This document shows positions 1 to 7,513 of a stretch of DNA of 64,000 bases, in pieces. This stretch comes from Lachnospiraceae bacterium (GTDB lineage: Bacteria; Bacillota; Clostridia; Lachnospirales; Lachnospiraceae), in assembly GCA_045616485.1 (NCBI GenBank), contig JAZLGU010000044.1, forward strand, positions 897 through 64,896, read 5' to 3'. A program made the translations under genes and the position numbers. How positions within the stretch are numbered: the stretch's first letter is position 1; each line of letters starts with the position of its first letter. Below the pieces are notes generated by a model. It did not search any database. It was not told the DNA's origin and worked only from the letters and a program-made list of their open reading frames with translations.

Positions 1-964
1 TATCATTAATTGCAGTAAACTTATAGTAAAGATTCTCCACAGGTGTCTCTGTAGTATAAGCTCCTTTTGCTTTGCTAAAGTCTACCTTCTTCCAAAAGTC
101 ATTGATAAAGCAATCTGCCATCTTTACCTGGCCATCATAATTGGGGTGAAAGTCTACAAATTTACCATCTGCACCATACTGCAGATACTGAGAATTAAAT
201 AAGCTGTCAAGATTTACATAGTAAACATTACTATCGCTTGAAGCTAATGCTTTATAATACTGTTGAATCTCATTTATTGCGGTTTTTACAGATCTGGTAA
301 AAAGGTAAGAGGTTATTATATCCATATTGACTATACTTGATAAAGTGGAAACACCATAATTATCATTATAACCTACATTAGTAAGAGCGATTTTACAATT
401 TGGATTATAACTCTCAATAACAGAAATAGTTTGTTTTACTTTTTCATTTATTGAAGCAATATATTTTATATGAAGCTCATTTTTAGAGTTCCCTAAAGCA
501 TCGGTAACTGCTTTATATACAGGGCTACTAGTTGTGATTCTGTTCTTACTTCCAATCAAATCAGGAGTGTCATAGCCTGCTCTGTATAAAGCTTCACCCA
601 GCATATGAATTATATCATTACCACCAATGCAAATTGTTATAAAATCAGCCTTTTTGATATCATCGATAACTTTTGCATCGTTAATAATCTGATAAAAAAC
701 ATCATCCGTAGTATAGCCACCTTTAGCATCATTACGAATAATGATTTCAACATTCTTGGATTTTTCCAGCTTTTCCTTTACATATACAGGATAAGTAGTC
801 CAATCTTTACCATCATATGTTGCATAGTCTGTCAAACTATCCCCCAGCGCCAGATAAGCGACCTTAGTTCTTCCGGCTGCATCAGCATATCTTAACGGTA
901 AAAGAGTAATGCAACATGCAAGCATAACAACAAGTGCCAGTGCTTTTTTTGTAAATCTTTTCAT
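1..964 (-). CDS. secreted SGNH/GDSL-family hydrolase (3' end runs off the window)
   Basis: Absent from the ORF track because it is open at the window edge. Hand translation from the ATG (complement of 962-964), preceded by GGAGGG, gives MKRFTKKALALVVMLACCITLL (signal peptide). Then come LALGDSLTD (block I GDS), CIGGNDI (block III GxND) and DFHPN (block V DxxH). Confidence 0.8.
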   Translation of the reverse strand, partial: MKRFTKKALALVVMLACCITLLPLRYADAAGRTKVAYLALGDSLTDYATYDGKDWTTYPVYVKEKLEKSKNVEIIIRNDAKGGYTTDDVFYQIINDAKVIDDIKKADFITICIGGNDIIHMLGEALYRAGYDTPDLIGSKNRITTSSPVYKAVTDALGNSKNELHIKYIASINEKVKQTISVIESYNPNCKIALTNVGYNDNYGVSTLSSIVNMDIITSYLFTRSVKTAINEIQQYYKALASSDSNVYYVNLDSLFNSQYLQYGADGKFVDFHPNYDGQVKMADCFINDFWKKVDFSKAKGAYTTETPVENLYYKFTAIND

Positions 965-1014
965 TATATCGCCCTCCAAAAGTTAGTATATATAGTATAT
1001 ACTTTTTGTCCCCA

Positions 1015-2402: not shown

Positions 2403-3167
2403 ATGCTTACTAATCTTAAAACAAAAATAAAACAACAGGAAAAACATAACATAATTGCAAAAATAGTTATGAAGATATACAGACTATTTAAGAAGATTCT
2501 TCGATTTATTACCAGCAGAAAGTACAGATCTCTGGTGAAGATGAAGTTCTTTCATTCCAAAAGGGCTCAGCAGACCACCTGTTATACTGCTATGGATCGT
2601 TATCCCAATGAATTTGCTGCTGCAAAGGAATACTTTGATTCTATCAATAAAACGGATATTAGAATCCTTTCCTATGGCTGTTGCACCGGCGAAGAAGTAG
2701 TGACACTTAGGCAGTATTTTCCGGAGGCTACCATTGTAGGGGCTGAGATTAATGCTGACAGCTTGCGTATATGTAAAAAGCGAAAGCTGGATAATAAGAT
2801 TGTTTTTATCAAGTCCATTCCTAAAAAGATAGCAAAGTATGGTCCATACGATATGGTGCTGGCCATGGCAGTACTGGAACGTACACCACAGTATGTGCAA
2901 AATAACGGCATCACAGACCTTTCTAATATTTATCCTTATGAAAAGTATGACAAGCAGGTAATAGAGCTGGATTCATATCTTAAAAAGGATGGCTTGTTTT
3001 TATGTAGCTATACCCATTATTTCTTACCAGACTCTACTGTGGGGAAGAAATATAATGTATATGGCAACTGTGGCTTTAAGGGTCAGATTTTTGACACTCA
3101 TAGTAAGCTAAAAAGTAGTGATAAAGCATTTCCGGATATGTTTATAAAAAGTAAATTACAGGGGTAG
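2403..3167 (+). CDS. class I SAM-dependent methyltransferase, CheR-like motif set
   Basis: RILSYGCCTGEEVVTL matches CheR motif I (IWSaGCsTGEEpYS). IVGAEINADSL and YDMVLAMAVLE fit the post-I and motif II/III positions. It starts 20 nt after the preceding gene and ends 6 nt before the next. The exact start is uncertain because the RBS is weak. Confidence 0.7.
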   Translation: MLTNLKTKIKQQEKHNIIAKIVMKIYRLFKKILRFITSRKYRSLVKMKFFHSKRAQQTTCYTAMDRYPNEFAAAKEYFDSINKTDIRILSYGCCTGEEVVTLRQYFPEATIVGAEINADSLRICKKRKLDNKIVFIKSIPKKIAKYGPYDMVLAMAVLERTPQYVQNNGITDLSNIYPYEKYDKQVIELDSYLKKDGLFLCSYTHYFLPDSTVGKKYNVYGNCGFKGQIFDTHSKLKSSDKAFPDMFIKSKLQG

Positions 3168-3173
3168 TTTCTC

Positions 3174-5105
3174 ATGTCAGCGATATATGGAGCTGTAGAT
3201 CTAAAAAACACTAGTGACTTTTCAGTCCAGGCAGAAAAGTATAAAAAGGAATATTCAGCGTATGCAGTAGAGCATGTAGATAATATAATTTCCGGCTCTG
3301 CCTTTATGGGCTGTGCCCATCAGTATTTTACTCCTGAAGCAGAACGTGATGTGTTGCCTGTAGAAGAGCCCGAGCTGCTTTTCACAGCCGACTGTTTCCT
3401 GGACAATCATATAGAGCTTAAAGAGGCGATGCAGCTCCCCTCTGATACTCCGGACGGGGCAGTGATACTGGCAGCGTTTAAGAAGTGGAAAAAGGATGTT
3501 ATAAAGCATCTTCATGGCTCCTTTTCCTTTGCTATCTATGATAAAGAGGCCCGTGAAGTCATGCTGGCCAATGACCGTTTTGCCCAGCGTTGTTTATTCT
3601 ATACCGTAAGGGGCAGTCAGGTTCATTTTTCTACACTCTTTTATCCATTACTTCGTAATAGTGGTCTGGACTTTAAAAAGAATAATCGCTGGCTTTTGGA
3701 CAGTATTTCCATGCGTGGACCTGTTATGATGTCTGAATGCAGGGAGACTGCCGTAGACTCCGTATATAAGGTAGTAAGCGGCACTTTCGTTACCATTAGT
3801 CTCGGCAGCGACGACAATGCCATTATAGAAGAGCATGAGTATTACAGGCCAAAAGATGAGATCAAGGTAAATAGAAAAATCACTCCTAAAAAGAGTGAGG
3901 ATATGATAAAAGATGTGATGTACCATGCCGTGGGCAGGATACTTAGAAATAAAGATCATATAGGTGCTCAGCTTAGCCGCGGACTGGACAGTACTTCAGT
4001 CGCCTGTACAGCTGCCATTCTTATGGCAAGAGAAGGAAAGTCTATAAACAGCTATACATCTGTCCCTTTAAAGGAGGCCAATCTGGATAATAAGGGGTAT
4101 CTCGTATACGACGAGACCAGTGGCGTCATGAAAGTAGTAGAAGCTTACCCCAATATCAAGCCTCATTTTATCGATACTGCCGGTAGAAATTACCTGCAGG
4201 AAGCAGATAATATCATTCGTCTTTGGGAGCTGCCTTGCAAGTCCCAGCAAAATTCCATCTGGTCCGACGAGATATATAAGCAGGCTGCAGCAGATGGAGT
4301 AAAGATAATGCTGACCGGAGCTACGGGCAATTGCACCATATCCGCCGGTAGCATCGAAAATTCACTCTATGATCATTTAAAGCATCTGCGCTTTATAAAA
4401 GCTTACAAAAGCCTTGGAGTAGCAAAAAAAGTAGGGGTACCGCCTAAGCGTTATTTAAGAAATCTTTGGAATCTCTACAAGAATTATAGAAAATGGGTAA
4501 AAGAGAATCATAGCTTCTACGAAGAAAATTTCACCAGAAGCGATATAGGAGAAGCATACAAGCTCTCTACCCGTATGGTGGAAAATAATGGTCATTATCT
4601 GCCCTTTGAAGATCTTAAGGCCATGCGTAAAGTCATGTTTTTCCAGAAGGCTAATGCCCAGATAGGCGAAGTAGATACCAAGACCAGTCTTACATATGGT
4701 GTACTGCCCAGAGACCCCATGCGTACCCACGATATGATGCAGCTCTGCTATTCCCTGCCTATAGAATGTTTCTCCTGGGATGATTATGACAGACGTCTGG
4801 TAAGAGAGGGTATGGCAGGTATTGTACCTGAATTTATACGTCACGACGTGCGCCATCGTGGCCGTCAGAGTGGTGATATCTACTATAGACTGAGTCTGGT
4901 ATGGGATGATGTATTACCTGTCATAAAAAATCAGCTATATAGTCCATCTACTTTAGACTATCTGGATAAAAAGAAAATAGCAGAGTGGCTGGATACTCTG
5001 ACCCGGGACAATCTCGAAGAGAATAGCAATAAAACCCTGATGGTAGTAGATGCTTATTCATTTTCACTTTATGTAAATCAGCTTGATAAACTCATATCAA
5101 AATAG
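3174..5105 (+). CDS. asparagine synthetase (AsnB)-family enzyme lacking the glutaminase Cys; lasso-peptide macrolactam synthetase-like
   Basis: 643 aa. It starts MSAIYG instead of MCGI (Cys2 nucleophile replaced by Ser). FTADCFLDNHIELKEAM sits at the position of NGEIYN..EL. LSRGLDSTSVACTAA matches the SGGLDSS PP-loop. The RBS AGGGG is upstream. Confidence 0.75.
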   Translation: MSAIYGAVDLKNTSDFSVQAEKYKKEYSAYAVEHVDNIISGSAFMGCAHQYFTPEAERDVLPVEEPELLFTADCFLDNHIELKEAMQLPSDTPDGAVILAAFKKWKKDVIKHLHGSFSFAIYDKEAREVMLANDRFAQRCLFYTVRGSQVHFSTLFYPLLRNSGLDFKKNNRWLLDSISMRGPVMMSECRETAVDSVYKVVSGTFVTISLGSDDNAIIEEHEYYRPKDEIKVNRKITPKKSEDMIKDVMYHAVGRILRNKDHIGAQLSRGLDSTSVACTAAILMAREGKSINSYTSVPLKEANLDNKGYLVYDETSGVMKVVEAYPNIKPHFIDTAGRNYLQEADNIIRLWELPCKSQQNSIWSDEIYKQAAADGVKIMLTGATGNCTISAGSIENSLYDHLKHLRFIKAYKSLGVAKKVGVPPKRYLRNLWNLYKNYRKWVKENHSFYEENFTRSDIGEAYKLSTRMVENNGHYLPFEDLKAMRKVMFFQKANAQIGEVDTKTSLTYGVLPRDPMRTHDMMQLCYSLPIECFSWDDYDRRLVREGMAGIVPEFIRHDVRHRGRQSGDIYYRLSLVWDDVLPVIKNQLYSPSTLDYLDKKKIAEWLDTLTRDNLEENSNKTLMVVDAYSFSLYVNQLDKLISK

Positions 5106-5167: not shown

Positions 5168-5212
5168 GGCAAAGGTTCAAAATGAATTAGTAAATTGTAG
5201 GAGGATTATACA

Positions 5213-5350
5213 ATGAAGAATTGGAATACACCCGCAGTAGAAGAAGTAAAGGTTAGCAATACACAGTACGGTGGTGCTACTGTTACAGAGCCTGATGACG
5301 TTTTTGTAAACGCTGATGGTAAGTGGGAAGCTACTTTCGTAGCATCATAA
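5213..5350 (+). CDS. RiPP precursor-like peptide alpha1 (45 aa): MKNWNTPAVEEVKVSNTQYGGATVTEPDDVFVNADGKWEATFVAS
   Basis: The ATG lies 7 nt after AGGAGGA (5199-5205) and the stop TAA is at 5348-5350. Its paralog alpha2 differs mostly by synonymous changes. The leader-like N-terminus is shared with three neighbouring short ORFs. Confidence 0.8.
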   Translation: MKNWNTPAVEEVKVSNTQYGGATVTEPDDVFVNADGKWEATFVAS

Positions 5351-5369
5351 TTTGAGGGAGGACATAAAG

Positions 5370-5504
5370 ATGAAGAATTGGAATATGCCTGCAGTAGAAG
5401 TAGTTGAGATCTCAGCTACACAGAATGGTGGTATGCCTAGCAAGAATTTCGACCAGTCATGGTACGATGAGAATGGCGCTCTTCACGTAAATTTCGAGAG
5501 CTAA
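5370..5504 (+). CDS. RiPP precursor-like peptide beta1 (44 aa): MKNWNMPAVEVVEISATQNGGMPSKNFDQSWYDENGALHVNFES
   Basis: The ATG is preceded by GAGGGAGGA (5354-5362), 19 nt after the alpha1 stop. The stop TAA is at 5502-5504. It aligns without gaps to alpha1. Confidence 0.8.
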   Translation: MKNWNMPAVEVVEISATQNGGMPSKNFDQSWYDENGALHVNFES

Positions 5505-5527
5505 TTATTTAAACATATTGTAACAGA

Positions 5528-5581
5528 GGGGGACGTTTCCAGCTGACAAGATTTAAATGTTGTCAGTTGGAAACGTCCCCC
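5528..5581 (+). terminator. 22-bp stem hairpin (one G-U pair, 10-nt loop) between the two alpha/beta cassettes; terminator, attenuator or RNA-stability element
   Basis: GGGGGACGTTTCCAGCTGACAA (5528-5549) pairs with TTGTCAGTTGGAAACGTCCCCC (5560-5581). There is no clean U-tract. Outer arms CATATTGTAACA (5514-5525) and TGTTACAAATATG (5596-5608) extend the structure. Confidence 0.6.
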
Positions 5582-5617
5582 TGTCATATATTAATTGTTA
5601 CAAATATGAAATATTTC

Positions 5618-5646
5618 TTGATATAAAAATAACATAGTGATATTAT
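5618..5646 (+). promoter_or_regulatory. candidate promoter for alpha2/beta2 (TTGATA - 17 nt - TATTAT with TGA extended -10)
   Basis: -35 at 5618-5623 and -10 at 5641-5646, with TG at 5638-5639. Confidence 0.45.
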
Positions 5647-5688
5647 CTAAAATATCTTATAAGAAGTAATTTTTGGGAGGAAAAAATT

Positions 5689-5829
5689 ATGAAGAACAAT
5701 TGGAATACACCAGCTGTAGAGGAAGTAAAGGTTAGCAATACTCAGTACGGCGGCGCTACTGTTACAGAGCCTGATGACATTTTTGTAAATGCTGATGGTA
5801 AGTGGGAAGCTACATTCGTAGAGTCATAA
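5689..5829 (+). CDS. RiPP precursor-like peptide alpha2 (46 aa): MKNNWNTPAVEEVKVSNTQYGGATVTEPDDIFVNADGKWEATFVES
   Basis: The ATG is preceded by GGGAGG (5675-5680) and the stop TAA is at 5827-5829. Relative to alpha1 there are 8 synonymous codon changes, 2 replacements (V->I, A->E) and one extra Asn codon. Confidence 0.8.
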   Translation: MKNNWNTPAVEEVKVSNTQYGGATVTEPDDIFVNADGKWEATFVES

Positions 5830-5848
5830 TTATAGGGAGGACATAAAA

Positions 5849-5998
5849 ATGAAGACTTGGACAGATCCAGATGTAAAGGTACTTGATATCGAAGAGACAG
5901 CAAATGGCGGTATGCCTAGCAAAAATTTCGACCAGCAGTGGTACGATGAGAATGGCGCTCTTCACGTAAATTTCGTTGATCCTAACGCTAATAGCTGA
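5849..5998 (+). CDS. RiPP precursor-like peptide beta2 (49 aa): MKTWTDPDVKVLDIEETANGGMPSKNFDQQWYDENGALHVNFVDPNANS
   Basis: The ATG is preceded by AGGGAGGA, 19 nt after the alpha2 stop, and the stop TGA is at 5996-5998. The core is nearly identical to beta1, including a 37-nt identical stretch, while the leader has diverged. Confidence 0.8.
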   Translation: MKTWTDPDVKVLDIEETANGGMPSKNFDQQWYDENGALHVNFVDPNANS

Positions 5999-6016: not shown

Positions 6017-6046
6017 CCGCACATGTAAATGTGCGGTCTTTTTTTG
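6017..6046 (+). terminator. Rho-independent terminator closing the peptide locus
   Basis: CCGCACAT (6017-6024), loop GTAA, ATGTGCGG (6029-6036), followed by TCTTTTTTT. Confidence 0.8.
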
Positions 6047-6218
6047 TTCATTTCTTATATCACATAATATCATTATATTTATAAGTAATTTTCAAGTGAT
6101 TATTCATTATTATTTTTATAATTTGCTTGCTTTTTCTTCTATAATAGGATATCATATCGTCTTGTACAAATGTATACAATTATACCATGATTATGAAATA
6201 CAGGAATATTTCATAGTA

Positions 6219-6304
6219 GGAGATAAAGAGTTCTCCATTTATTCCACTTCGTTTCATAAAAGGAGATAAAGAGTTTCCCATTTATTCCACTTCGTTTCAT
6301 AAAA
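6219..6304 (+). repeat. 43-bp tandem direct repeat (2 full copies plus a partial third that supplies the aminotransferase RBS)
   Basis: GGAGATAAAGAGTTCTCCATTTATTCCACTTCGTTTCATAAAA (6219-6261) is repeated at 6262-6304, with TTCTCC changed to TTTCCC. GGAGATAACATG then follows at 6305. Confidence 0.85.
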
Positions 6305-6313
6305 GGAGATAAC

Positions 6314-7513
6314 ATGTCACTTGAACTTTCTAAAAAAGCACTAGCAGTAAAGCCTTCATCTACCCTGGCTATCACAGCCAAGGCTAAGAAAATGAAAGCT
6401 GAGGGTATCGATGTAGTAGGATTTGGTGCAGGTGAGCCGGATTTTAATACACCTCAGAATATTTGTGATGCAGCCAAAAAAGCTATTGACGATGGCTTTA
6501 CCAAGTATACACCTGCTTCAGGTACAGTAGAGCTGCGACAGGCTATTGCCCAGAAGTTTAAAAGATTTAATAATCTTTCCTACGATATAAGTCAGATAGT
6601 AGTATCTAACGGTGGTAAGCATTCTCTTACCAATGTTTTTGAGGCTATTATTAATCCCGGTGATGAGGTCATCATCCCTGCACCTTTCTGGCTCAGCTAT
6701 CCTGAGATAGTAAAGCTTTGTGGCGGTGTACCTGTTATCGTTGACTGTCCTGCCAGCCAGAGCTATAAAATGACAGCTGCTCAGCTGCAGGCTGCTATTA
6801 CAGAGAGGACAAAGGCAGTTGTACTCAATACTCCTTCCAATCCCACAGGTATGATATATACCAAGGATGAGCTACTTGAGCTGGCTCAGGTCATTGTAAA
6901 GAATGATATCTACTGTGTATCCGACGAGATGTACGAGAATCTCGTATATACAGATGATGAGGTCGTATCTATAGCTTCCCTGGGTCAGGATATCTATGAC
7001 CGTACCATTACCTGCTCCGGCGTATCAAAGGCCTATGCCATGACCGGCTGGAGAATAGGCTATGTAGGCGCTCCTCGTGAGATTGCTGCTCTTATGGGCT
7101 CCATCCAGTCTCATCAGACTTCCAATCCCGGCTCTATCGCTCAGGCTGCTTCTTTAGAGGCTCTTTGCGGCCCTCAGGACACTATTGAGGATATGAGAAA
7201 AGAATTTGACAGAAGAAGAGTATATATGTATGACAGACTGTCCTCCATGCCTCTTATTTCCTGTCTGAAGCCTCAGGGTGCTTTCTATGTATTTGTAGAT
7301 ATGACCAATGTTTTTGGCAAAAAGTATCAGGAGCAGACTATTGAAAATATCGGCGATGTAGCTCGTATCCTTATCGACGATTACAAGACAGCAGTTATTC
7401 CTTGTGCTGATTTTGGTGCCCCCAATCATATGCGTCTTTCCTATGCCATCTCCATGGAAAACATCGAGAAGGGTCTGGATAGAATAGAAGGCTTCCTCAA
7501 TACTATCTGCTAA
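6314..7513 (+). CDS. pyridoxal-phosphate-dependent aspartate aminotransferase (class I)
   Basis: 399 aa. It has the SKAYAMTGWRIGY PLP-lysine motif, NPSNPTG-like TPSNPTG, and typical AspAT length. Confidence 0.85.
   Translation: MSLELSKKALAVKPSSTLAITAKAKKMKAEGIDVVGFGAGEPDFNTPQNICDAAKKAIDDGFTKYTPASGTVELRQAIAQKFKRFNNLSYDISQIVVSNGGKHSLTNVFEAIINPGDEVIIPAPFWLSYPEIVKLCGGVPVIVDCPASQSYKMTAAQLQAAITERTKAVVLNTPSNPTGMIYTKDELLELAQVIVKNDIYCVSDEMYENLVYTDDEVVSIASLGQDIYDRTITCSGVSKAYAMTGWRIGYVGAPREIAALMGSIQSHQTSNPGSIAQAASLEALCGPQDTIEDMRKEFDRRRVYMYDRLSSMPLISCLKPQGAFYVFVDMTNVFGKKYQEQTIENIGDVARILIDDYKTAVIPCADFGAPNHMRLSYAISMENIEKGLDRIEGFLNTIC

Follow-up and report, generated by a model that had tools for sequence, protein, structure and literature searches.

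Four small ORFs beside a lasso-type cyclase in a Lachnospiraceae genome very probably encode a duplicated alpha/beta pair of lasso-peptide precursors

A 64,000-nucleotide stretch of the genome of a Lachnospiraceae bacterium (NCBI GenBank assembly GCA_045616485.1, contig JAZLGU010000044.1, positions 897 to 64,896 of the forward strand) carries four short open reading frames (ORFs) of 44 to 49 codons, located 3' of a gene for an asparagine-synthetase-like macrolactam cyclase. This 64-kb stretch is referred to here as the window; its numbering is used for all coordinates, and all window loci and searches refer to it. Our analysis indicates, with high confidence, that the four ORFs are precursor (A) genes for paeninodin-like lasso peptides of a Lachnospiraceae type, and that they represent two copies of an ancient alpha/beta pair. 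A first-pass annotation of the same DNA overlooked this identity: the ORFs were not connected to the neighbouring lasso cyclase, so that their invariant residues went unrecognised as positions of a lasso leader and ring. The conserved pairing of alpha with beta, the duplication of this pair and a layout in which leader-processing (B) genes are missing and a methyltransferase gene takes the place of a kinase gene are new details, and do not constitute a new kind of system.

Lasso-precursor features of the four ORFs

All four ORFs lie on the forward strand, where they form two alpha-beta cassettes. Alpha1 (5213..5350) encodes 45 residues, of which residues 1-19 are probably the leader and G20-S45 probably the core. 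Beta1 (5370..5504) encodes 44 residues counted from its ATG, which sits within a longer TTG-initiated ORF beginning at 5352, and combines an alpha-like leader with a beta-type core, GGMPSKNFD...HVNFES. Alpha2 (5689..5829, 46 residues) is a paralogue of alpha1, and beta2 (5849..5998, 49 residues) carries a beta core followed by a C-terminal extension, VDPNANS, similar to extensions found in related peptides elsewhere (TDPDANKLS in L005/L006 and DDPNANS in P0168).

These peptides match the expectations for lasso-peptide precursors in several ways. The cyclase gene ends 107 nt 5' of alpha1, so that the precursors adjoin a macrolactam cyclase. The leader recognition motif [Y/W]xxPx[L/V/I/F/A] is present in all four peptides as W4-x-x-P7-x-V9, and an invariant small residue, G20, is followed by an invariant Asp, D28, which falls at core position 9, within the expected range of core positions 7-9. 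T17 is likewise invariant, three residues before G20, and all four peptides end in Ser. The only family matched by the peptides was NF033524 (paeninodin-family lasso peptide), with E-values of 0.0065-0.029 (alpha1 0.016, beta1 0.0065).

The same register extends across a large family. When a profile of the four peptides was searched against 1.84 billion representative proteins, 95 matches were found at E <= 1e-3 (best E ~1e-13), 90 of which are 43-83 residues long. In 89 of these 90 representatives the spacing is fixed, with W followed by T 13 residues on and by D 11 residues after T. Within this set of 89, W and the D at T+11 are present throughout; the residue at W+3 is Pro in 72 and Ala in 15, that at T+3 is Gly in 85 and Ser in 2, and 53 end in a C-terminal Ser, while position T+2 is hypervariable.

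The cyclase (3174..5105, + strand) is an intact protein of 643 residues with Pfam Asn_synthase and GATase_7/6 domains, whose best NCBIfam match is NF033535 (lasso peptide isopeptide bond-forming cyclase; E 7e-44) and which retains all 45 family-invariant positions. We identified about 80 homologues of this protein, the closer of which are 35-52% identical; those with names come from Butyrivibrio or Pseudobutyrivibrio. A complete cluster is found in Pseudobutyrivibrio xylanivorans (CP043028), in the order NTP_transf_5, ATP-binding cassette (ABC) exporter, PqqD (B1), Transglut_core3 (B2), HPr-kinase-like protein and cyclase, followed 3' by ORFs of 45 and 44 residues, a response regulator and a histidine kinase. 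This B1/B2-kinase-cyclase core recurs in L004, L008, L011, L016 and L017, with precursor ORF(s) 3' where the contig reaches; B1 and B2 stand beside the orthologous cyclase in L002 as well, and kinase and nucleotidyltransferase genes were found in homologous loci. Homologous cyclases in clusters of this kind come from metagenomic contigs as well. The ORFs are not products of chance, as intact homologues stand 3' of related cyclases at 10 or more independent loci.

The layout reported by the first-pass annotation was reproduced in full, in both its coordinates and its counts. The four ATGs are preceded by the ribosome-binding sites AGGAGGA, GAGGGAGGA, GGGAGG and AGGGAGGA, and the two alpha-beta spacers (5351..5369 and 5830..5848, + strand), which hold the beta1 and beta2 Shine-Dalgarno sequences respectively, are both exactly 19 nt long (TTTGAGGGAGGACATAAAG and TTATAGGGAGGACATAAAA). 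Alpha1 and alpha2 differ by eight synonymous codons, two replacements (V30I and A44E) and one additional Asn codon, and the beta cores (codons 19-42, 24 codons) by two synonymous changes and one replacement (S30Q). The two betas share a 37-nt identical run (5460-5496), with leaders identical at 8/18 residues. W4, P7, V9, T17, G20, G21, D28, G36 and F42 are invariant in 4/4 peptides, as are M1 and K2, which had not been listed before. The duplicated block covers no more than the stretch between the start of alpha and the stop of beta, and the sequences 5' of the two cassettes are unrelated.

Coding status and selection

The proposal that these are real genes under purifying selection is well supported by their relatives. 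We compared 11 alpha-type and 11 beta-type ORFs from independent loci and found all 22 intact, with neither frameshifts nor stop codons. The proportion of nonsynonymous differences (pN) was below that of synonymous differences (pS) in 55/55 alpha and 55/55 beta pairs (110/110). Mean pairwise nucleotide differences at codon positions 1/2/3 were 0.34/0.34/0.56 for alpha and 0.35/0.31/0.54 for beta; conservation thus depends on the reading frame, with differences concentrated at third positions (0.55 versus 0.33 at the others). Neither of the two outcomes that the first-pass annotation had named as refuting, disrupted frames in relatives and conservation indifferent to frame, was therefore seen. 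For alpha1 and alpha2, the ratio of nonsynonymous to synonymous rates (dN/dS), which the first-pass annotation had suggested calculating on homologues, is 0.10 (Nei-Gojobori).

Weighing the lasso-peptide assignment

Several observations weigh against the assignment of the four ORFs as lasso precursors. The peptides score 14.1-16.2 bits against NF033524, under its curated cut-off of 27 bits, and the cyclase scores 150 bits against NF033535, where the curated cut-off is 525. The P. xylanivorans alpha and beta peptides, which come from a complete cluster, do not match NF033524 at all, implying that this model does not cover the Lachnospiraceae branch, and the cyclase of that cluster also scores under the NF033535 cut-off. 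If Gly20 is the first core residue, the conserved Thr would lie at -3, a departure from the canonical -2 register. Thr would lie at -2 only if the core began at residue 19, giving a 10-residue ring, for which we know of no precedent among lasso peptides; we judge this register the less likely, as Gly20 hardly varies across the family whereas residue 19 is hypervariable. In addition, threaded topology is not deducible from sequence, the window lacks the partner genes of complete clusters (see below), and our literature search found no isolated or structurally characterised member of the Lachnospiraceae subfamily.

The two possible registers are distinguished by mass. Calculated monoisotopic masses of the dehydrated cores starting at G20 are 2664.23 (alpha1), 2810.20 (beta1), 2736.26 (alpha2) and 3332.46 (beta2), and those of cores starting at residue 19 are 2827.30, 2924.25, 2899.32 and 3446.50, in the same order.

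We also considered, for its similar leader logic, the linear polyphosphorylated peptide (LPP) family, whose members have a YxxPxVLxHQxIxFETxxS leader and a SipW-like signal peptidase and lack a cyclase (PMC13381572). Membership was rejected, as the window leaders carry W in place of Y and lack the HQxIxFET motif, and a cyclase adjoins. A sequence search of the PDB with the peptide profile gave no match. Exact-protein look-up of the cyclase and of alpha1 returned no contig on record, a genome-contig scan with the cyclase returned a single match, in a distant Ruminiclostridium, and a word-indexed search with alpha1 returned alpha1 alone.

Two precursor types and a mosaic beta1

The first-pass annotation had described the ORFs as two paralogous types kept as a pair, a view that extends well beyond the window. 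The ORFs found 3' of homologous cyclases are clearly related to the window peptides by descent and divide into the same alpha and beta types, with alpha always first; alpha and then beta follow the cyclase in L002, L004, L008, L009, L011, L012, L014 and L016. The alpha type follows the pattern ..TQYGG......FD..YVN.EGNWEGTF..S, and the beta type the pattern ..T.[NE]GG.PS..FDQQWFDENGALHVNFES. Most beta leaders of these eight loci read W-E-N-A, with Ala for the Pro of WxxP; this Pro is kept in the alpha leaders of most loci (L008 being an exception) and in both window beta leaders. In one family member of 83 residues (P0139), a single leader and a single GG...D ring segment precede two tails in turn, the first of alpha type (YVNANGEWEGT) and the second of beta type (YHDENGAAHIVF), making this protein a natural fusion of both tail modules.

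One reading did not survive this comparison. The conserved core and diverged leader of the two window betas had been taken as the reverse of the usual pattern for ribosomally synthesised, post-translationally modified peptides (RiPPs); they are no signature of selection. The leader of beta1 resembles the alpha type, with 13/18 residues and 76% of nucleotides identical to alpha1, and shares 5/18 residues with most orthologous beta leaders (9/18 with L002), while the beta2 leader is about equidistant from all other leaders. The window beta cores are 93% identical to each other in nucleotide sequence, versus 68-79% to their orthologues. Taken together, the alpha-like leader and the near-identical cores show beta1 to be a mosaic of leader and core, in which the core has been homogenised or was copied recently. 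Across orthologues, mean identity in alpha follows the usual pattern (leader 0.55 versus core 0.38-0.42) and in beta is about flat (leader 0.49 versus core 0.51-0.54).

The persistence of the pair raises the question of whether alpha and beta constitute a two-component lasso system, in which both peptides share the machinery and work only, or much better, together. Such a system would account for the conservation of the pair and for its duplication as a unit. The alpha-then-beta order in at least eight divergent loci and in both window cassettes is consistent with such a system, as are the purifying selection on both types, the inclusion of the 19-nt spacer in the duplication and the joining of the two tails in P0139; moreover, the felipeptins, two lasso peptides of one cluster, are reported to be active as a mixture (PMC7689547). 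We nonetheless consider it unlikely, given that single-peptide loci exist (L005/L006, L007, L018 and L019) and that multi-precursor lasso clusters with independent products are known. The caulosegnins and astexins are such cases.

The window pair shares with two-peptide lantibiotics (lacticin 3147, haloduracin) and with felipeptins A1/A2 the placement of two paralogous modified peptides side by side and their retention as a pair. This is a resemblance and not membership. The chemistry is different, and in two-peptide lantibiotics each peptide is usually served by a modifying enzyme of its own.

Absence of partner genes and the neighbouring methyltransferase

In contrast to homologous clusters, no gene for B1, B2, kinase, nucleotidyltransferase or lasso-type ABC exporter was detected in the 64-kb window, using tblastn with the P. 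xylanivorans proteins and hidden Markov models (HMMs) built from 9-21 family members and run on all 585 stop-to-stop ORFs. The best E-values for B1 and B2 in the window were 0.33 and 1.2 (HMMs from 16-19 members), leaving it without these two marks of a lasso cluster.

A class I S-adenosylmethionine-dependent methyltransferase (2403..3167, + strand; Pfam Methyltransf_31/23/25/11) ends 6 nt 5' of the cyclase, in the slot occupied by the HPr-kinase-like gene in homologous clusters, and is a putative tailoring enzyme. Attempts to assign it a function yielded one weak PDB sequence match and, from an AlphaFold 2 model (predicted local distance difference test, pLDDT, 88.6), generic class I methyltransferases at a template-modelling (TM) score of ~0.4; such generic matches give no clue to the substrate. 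In the relative L010, a methyltransferase 98% identical in amino acid sequence again abuts a cyclase, which is 67% identical to that of the window and open across 441 residues up to the contig end. The contrast between the two identities suggests allele replacement or diversification at a maintained methyltransferase-cyclase locus, and the L010 precursors were presumably replaced or diversified along with the cyclase. When L010:2147-4240 is aligned with window 2403-4500, cyclase identity falls to 67% past the first ~60 residues.

A 50%-identical methyltransferase in the unrelated locus L041 has as neighbours two lasso-type cyclases and three peptides with WxxP leaders, again with no B1, B2 or kinase; two further methyltransferase homologues, of 40 found, have unrelated neighbours. 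The gene order in L041:3379-9961 is peptide, cyclase, peptide, cyclase, methyltransferase, esterase, peptide, and its peptides have MKKW..P leaders, T-x-x-G and a Glu at core position 8. L041 is flanked by a pyruvate-formate-lyase activase and a pyruvate-formate-lyase-like gene, as read from a radical-SAM match and the sequences.

The missing partners could mean that the locus is a silent or decaying satellite, in which a cyclase and precursors copied from a complete cluster are not matured. The absence of B1, B2, K and D from the 64 kb, the report of 23 'incomplete' lasso clusters in rumen genomes (PMC7533575) and the scatter of orphan cyclase loci over the cyclase tree, which suggests repeated break-up, are all compatible with this. 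It appears improbable, since alpha1 and alpha2 have kept a dN/dS of 0.10 since their duplication, all four ORFs retain strong Shine-Dalgarno sequences and every family-invariant residue, the cyclase is intact at 45/45 family-invariant positions, and the methyltransferase-cyclase layout persists in L010 beside a cyclase that has diverged to 67% identity and remains open over 441 residues. Intact peptides are also found at three other independent orphan cyclase-precursor loci (L005/L006, L007 and L009), and B1 and B2 may lie in the genome outside the window. A proposal that the orphan cyclases form a distinct clade was rejected, as they are not monophyletic in a neighbour-joining tree.

Proposed maturation

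A maturation route for the lasso precursors can be proposed by homology to characterised paeninodin-like systems, on which every step depends. W4-x-x-P7-x-V9 of the leader (~19 residues) would be bound by B1, the PqqD-like recognition protein, while T17 would aid the cut by a transglutaminase-like protease, B2, which would free the invariant Gly20 as the core N-terminus. The cyclase would then adenylate the side chain of Asp28 and couple it to the Gly20 amine, giving a 9-residue macrolactam, with a W/Y/F-rich tail of 16-21 residues threaded through the G20-D28 ring. The conserved C-terminal Ser would correspond to the residue phosphorylated by HPr-kinase-like enzymes in the paeninodin-like subfamily. 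On this reading the locus itself is a satellite 'MT-C-A4' unit (methyltransferase, cyclase and four precursors), which must either draw on B1 and B2 from elsewhere in the genome or depend on host proteases, as shown for pseudomycoidin.

We also entertain, as a speculative proposal to which we assign a low probability, a B1/B2-independent, methyltransferase-tailored lasso pathway in which the cyclase and a host protease mature the Thr(-3) precursors and alpha and beta are an obligate pair. If this were true, the combination of methyltransferase, cyclase(s) and WxxP peptides without B1, B2 or kinase in the unrelated L041 would represent a distinct, overlooked cluster architecture.

Alternatively, the product may be a non-lasso macrolactam, that is, a branched-cyclic peptide that is not threaded and that the adjoining methyltransferase may methylate. 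Bulky C-terminal modifications have been proposed by the authors of the pseudomycoidin study as a possible lock (PMC6993621), and the kinase and nucleotidyltransferase are both absent from the window. The tails of the window peptides, though, have W/Y/F at core positions 11-13 and W/H/F towards their ends, bulky residues that could plug the ring sterically, and in the same study the addition of a bulky tail residue reportedly restored threading in pseudomycoidin (PMC6993621), so that we regard an unthreaded product as quite unlikely. Finally, a structured RNA or non-coding repeat as the source of the conservation is refuted by the excess of third-position differences, by pN < pS in all pairs, by the open frames of all 22 homologues and by protein-profile matches with E-values down to 1e-13, and was rejected given that a search of the entire window against Rfam gave no match.

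Relation to known systems

Lasso precursors have previously been predicted in silico from rumen Butyrivibrio and Lachnospira, the residues assigned being T at -3, G at +1, D at 8-9 and Ser as the last residue (PMC7533575), and multi-precursor genomes and frequent incomplete clusters are features of the rumen Lachnospiraceae lasso family (PMC7533575, Sabino 2020; PMC13289728, Hungate1000 survey 2026). The window peptides share with the Sabino precursors the leader form MKxWxxPxhEEhxhxxT-x-x up to the core Gly, the positions just given for Thr, Gly and Asp, a C-terminal Ser (frequent among those precursors) and an adjacent cyclase; of the precursors of Butyrivibrio sp. YAB3001, #2 is alpha-like and #1 beta-like (PMC7533575). 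They differ in that the window alpha and beta sequences are new, forming singleton clusters at 90% identity, and in that a methyltransferase replaces the kinase and B1, B2, K and D are all missing from the 64 kb. Alpha-then-beta pairing and tandem duplication are not described in the accessible parts of that work.

With the paeninodin, pseudomycoidin and PbaA systems of Bacilli, the window peptides share the WxxPx[L/V] leader, which in those systems is bound by a discrete PqqD-like recognition protein, a 9-residue ring (predicted for the window peptides) closed on Asp/Glu, and a terminal Ser, the phospho-acceptor in those systems. WxxPx[L/V] is a hallmark of paeninodin-like leaders and is bound by B1, and its W is nearly invariant in the subfamily (PMC13381572). 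An HprK-like kinase phosphorylates the C-terminal Ser of pseudomycoidin, as of paeninodin (PMC6993621). The homologous Lachnospiraceae clusters additionally share with these systems split B1/B2, an HprK-like kinase, NTP_transf_5 and an ABC exporter. In contrast, none of B1, B2, K, N and D was detected at the window locus, and its peptides score under the NF033524 cut-off. The register also differs: characterised paeninodin-like precursors, including that of Bacillus cereus KPR-7A, have W at -15, Thr at -2 and a core starting from an Ala two residues after Thr, whereas the window peptides have one extra residue, so that counting from Gly20 as +1 puts T at -3 and W at -16.

The combination of cyclase and precursor with no leader peptidase or recognition protein has counterparts in the cluster proposed for Stanieria cyanosphaera PCC 7437 and in psmCAD. 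For pseudomycoidin, psmC, psmA and psmD suffice, without B1/B2, and this set yields the macrolactam experimentally by way of host proteases (PMC6993621). Together with the B-less proposals, this precedent implies that the window locus could work alone or be served in trans. The Stanieria proposal differs from the window in keeping the kinase, where the window has a methyltransferase, and trans-acting B1/B2 elsewhere in the window's genome are possible.

The locus adds new alpha and beta core sequences to a Lachnospiraceae branch for which our literature search found no isolated or characterised lasso peptide. It raises the questions of whether a locus of cyclase and precursors can function when it encodes neither leader peptidase nor recognition protein, what role is played by the methyltransferase that replaces the kinase, and why the alpha/beta pair has been kept across genera and duplicated as a unit. 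Current understanding is not overturned, as B-less production has experimental precedent and multi-precursor clusters are common.

Predicted transcription signals and flanking genes

Hairpin, promoter and terminator calls were made as predictions from consensus or thermodynamics. Between the cassettes lies a near-perfect stem-loop of ~24 bp (5526..5583, + strand; -49 kcal/mol, z = -11.8 on RNA folding) with no U-run behind it, which is probably a transcript-end, attenuator or stabiliser element. A reading of this hairpin as a dispersed repeat was rejected, as its arm sequence has no second copy in the window or the fetched loci. A sigma-70-like promoter candidate for cassette 2 (5618..5646, + strand) reads TTGATA, 17 nt, TG, TATTAT, a 10/12 consensus match with an extended -10 TG, identified by that consensus match alone. 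Beta2 is followed by a predicted intrinsic terminator (6017..6046, + strand), an 8-bp GC-rich stem and then a T-run (-16.3 kcal/mol, z = -5.3). Alpha1-beta1 would probably be transcribed by read-through from the methyltransferase-cyclase operon, ending at the 5526-5583 hairpin, and alpha2-beta2 may be expressed from its own promoter-like site and closed by the terminator.

The genes 3' of the locus are housekeeping genes, and the window's downstream genes show no synteny with the complete clusters beyond a weak metallophosphoesterase similarity. A 43-nt tandem repeat of 2.4 copies, 93% identical (6209-6312), lies directly 5' of the start codon of an aminotransferase gene at 6314; each copy holds a Shine-Dalgarno-like string, AAAGGAGATAA, and the repeat matches no Rfam family.

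On the 5' side, a DUF2971 gene (1546-2382) with a GC content of ~0.28, versus ~0.42 in its neighbours, was considered as a cluster member and rejected, given this low GC and its absence from L010, which is otherwise collinear. Its absence there points to a recent-looking insertion between a lipase gene and the methyltransferase-cyclase operon. This GDSL-type lipase gene (1-982, minus strand), which runs off the window start, forms the upstream bound of the locus. It is 90% identical in nucleotide sequence to an L010 gene with Lipase_GDSL and Glyco_hydro_16 domains, and its translation has, as judged by eye, a hydrophobic signal-peptide-like N-terminus.

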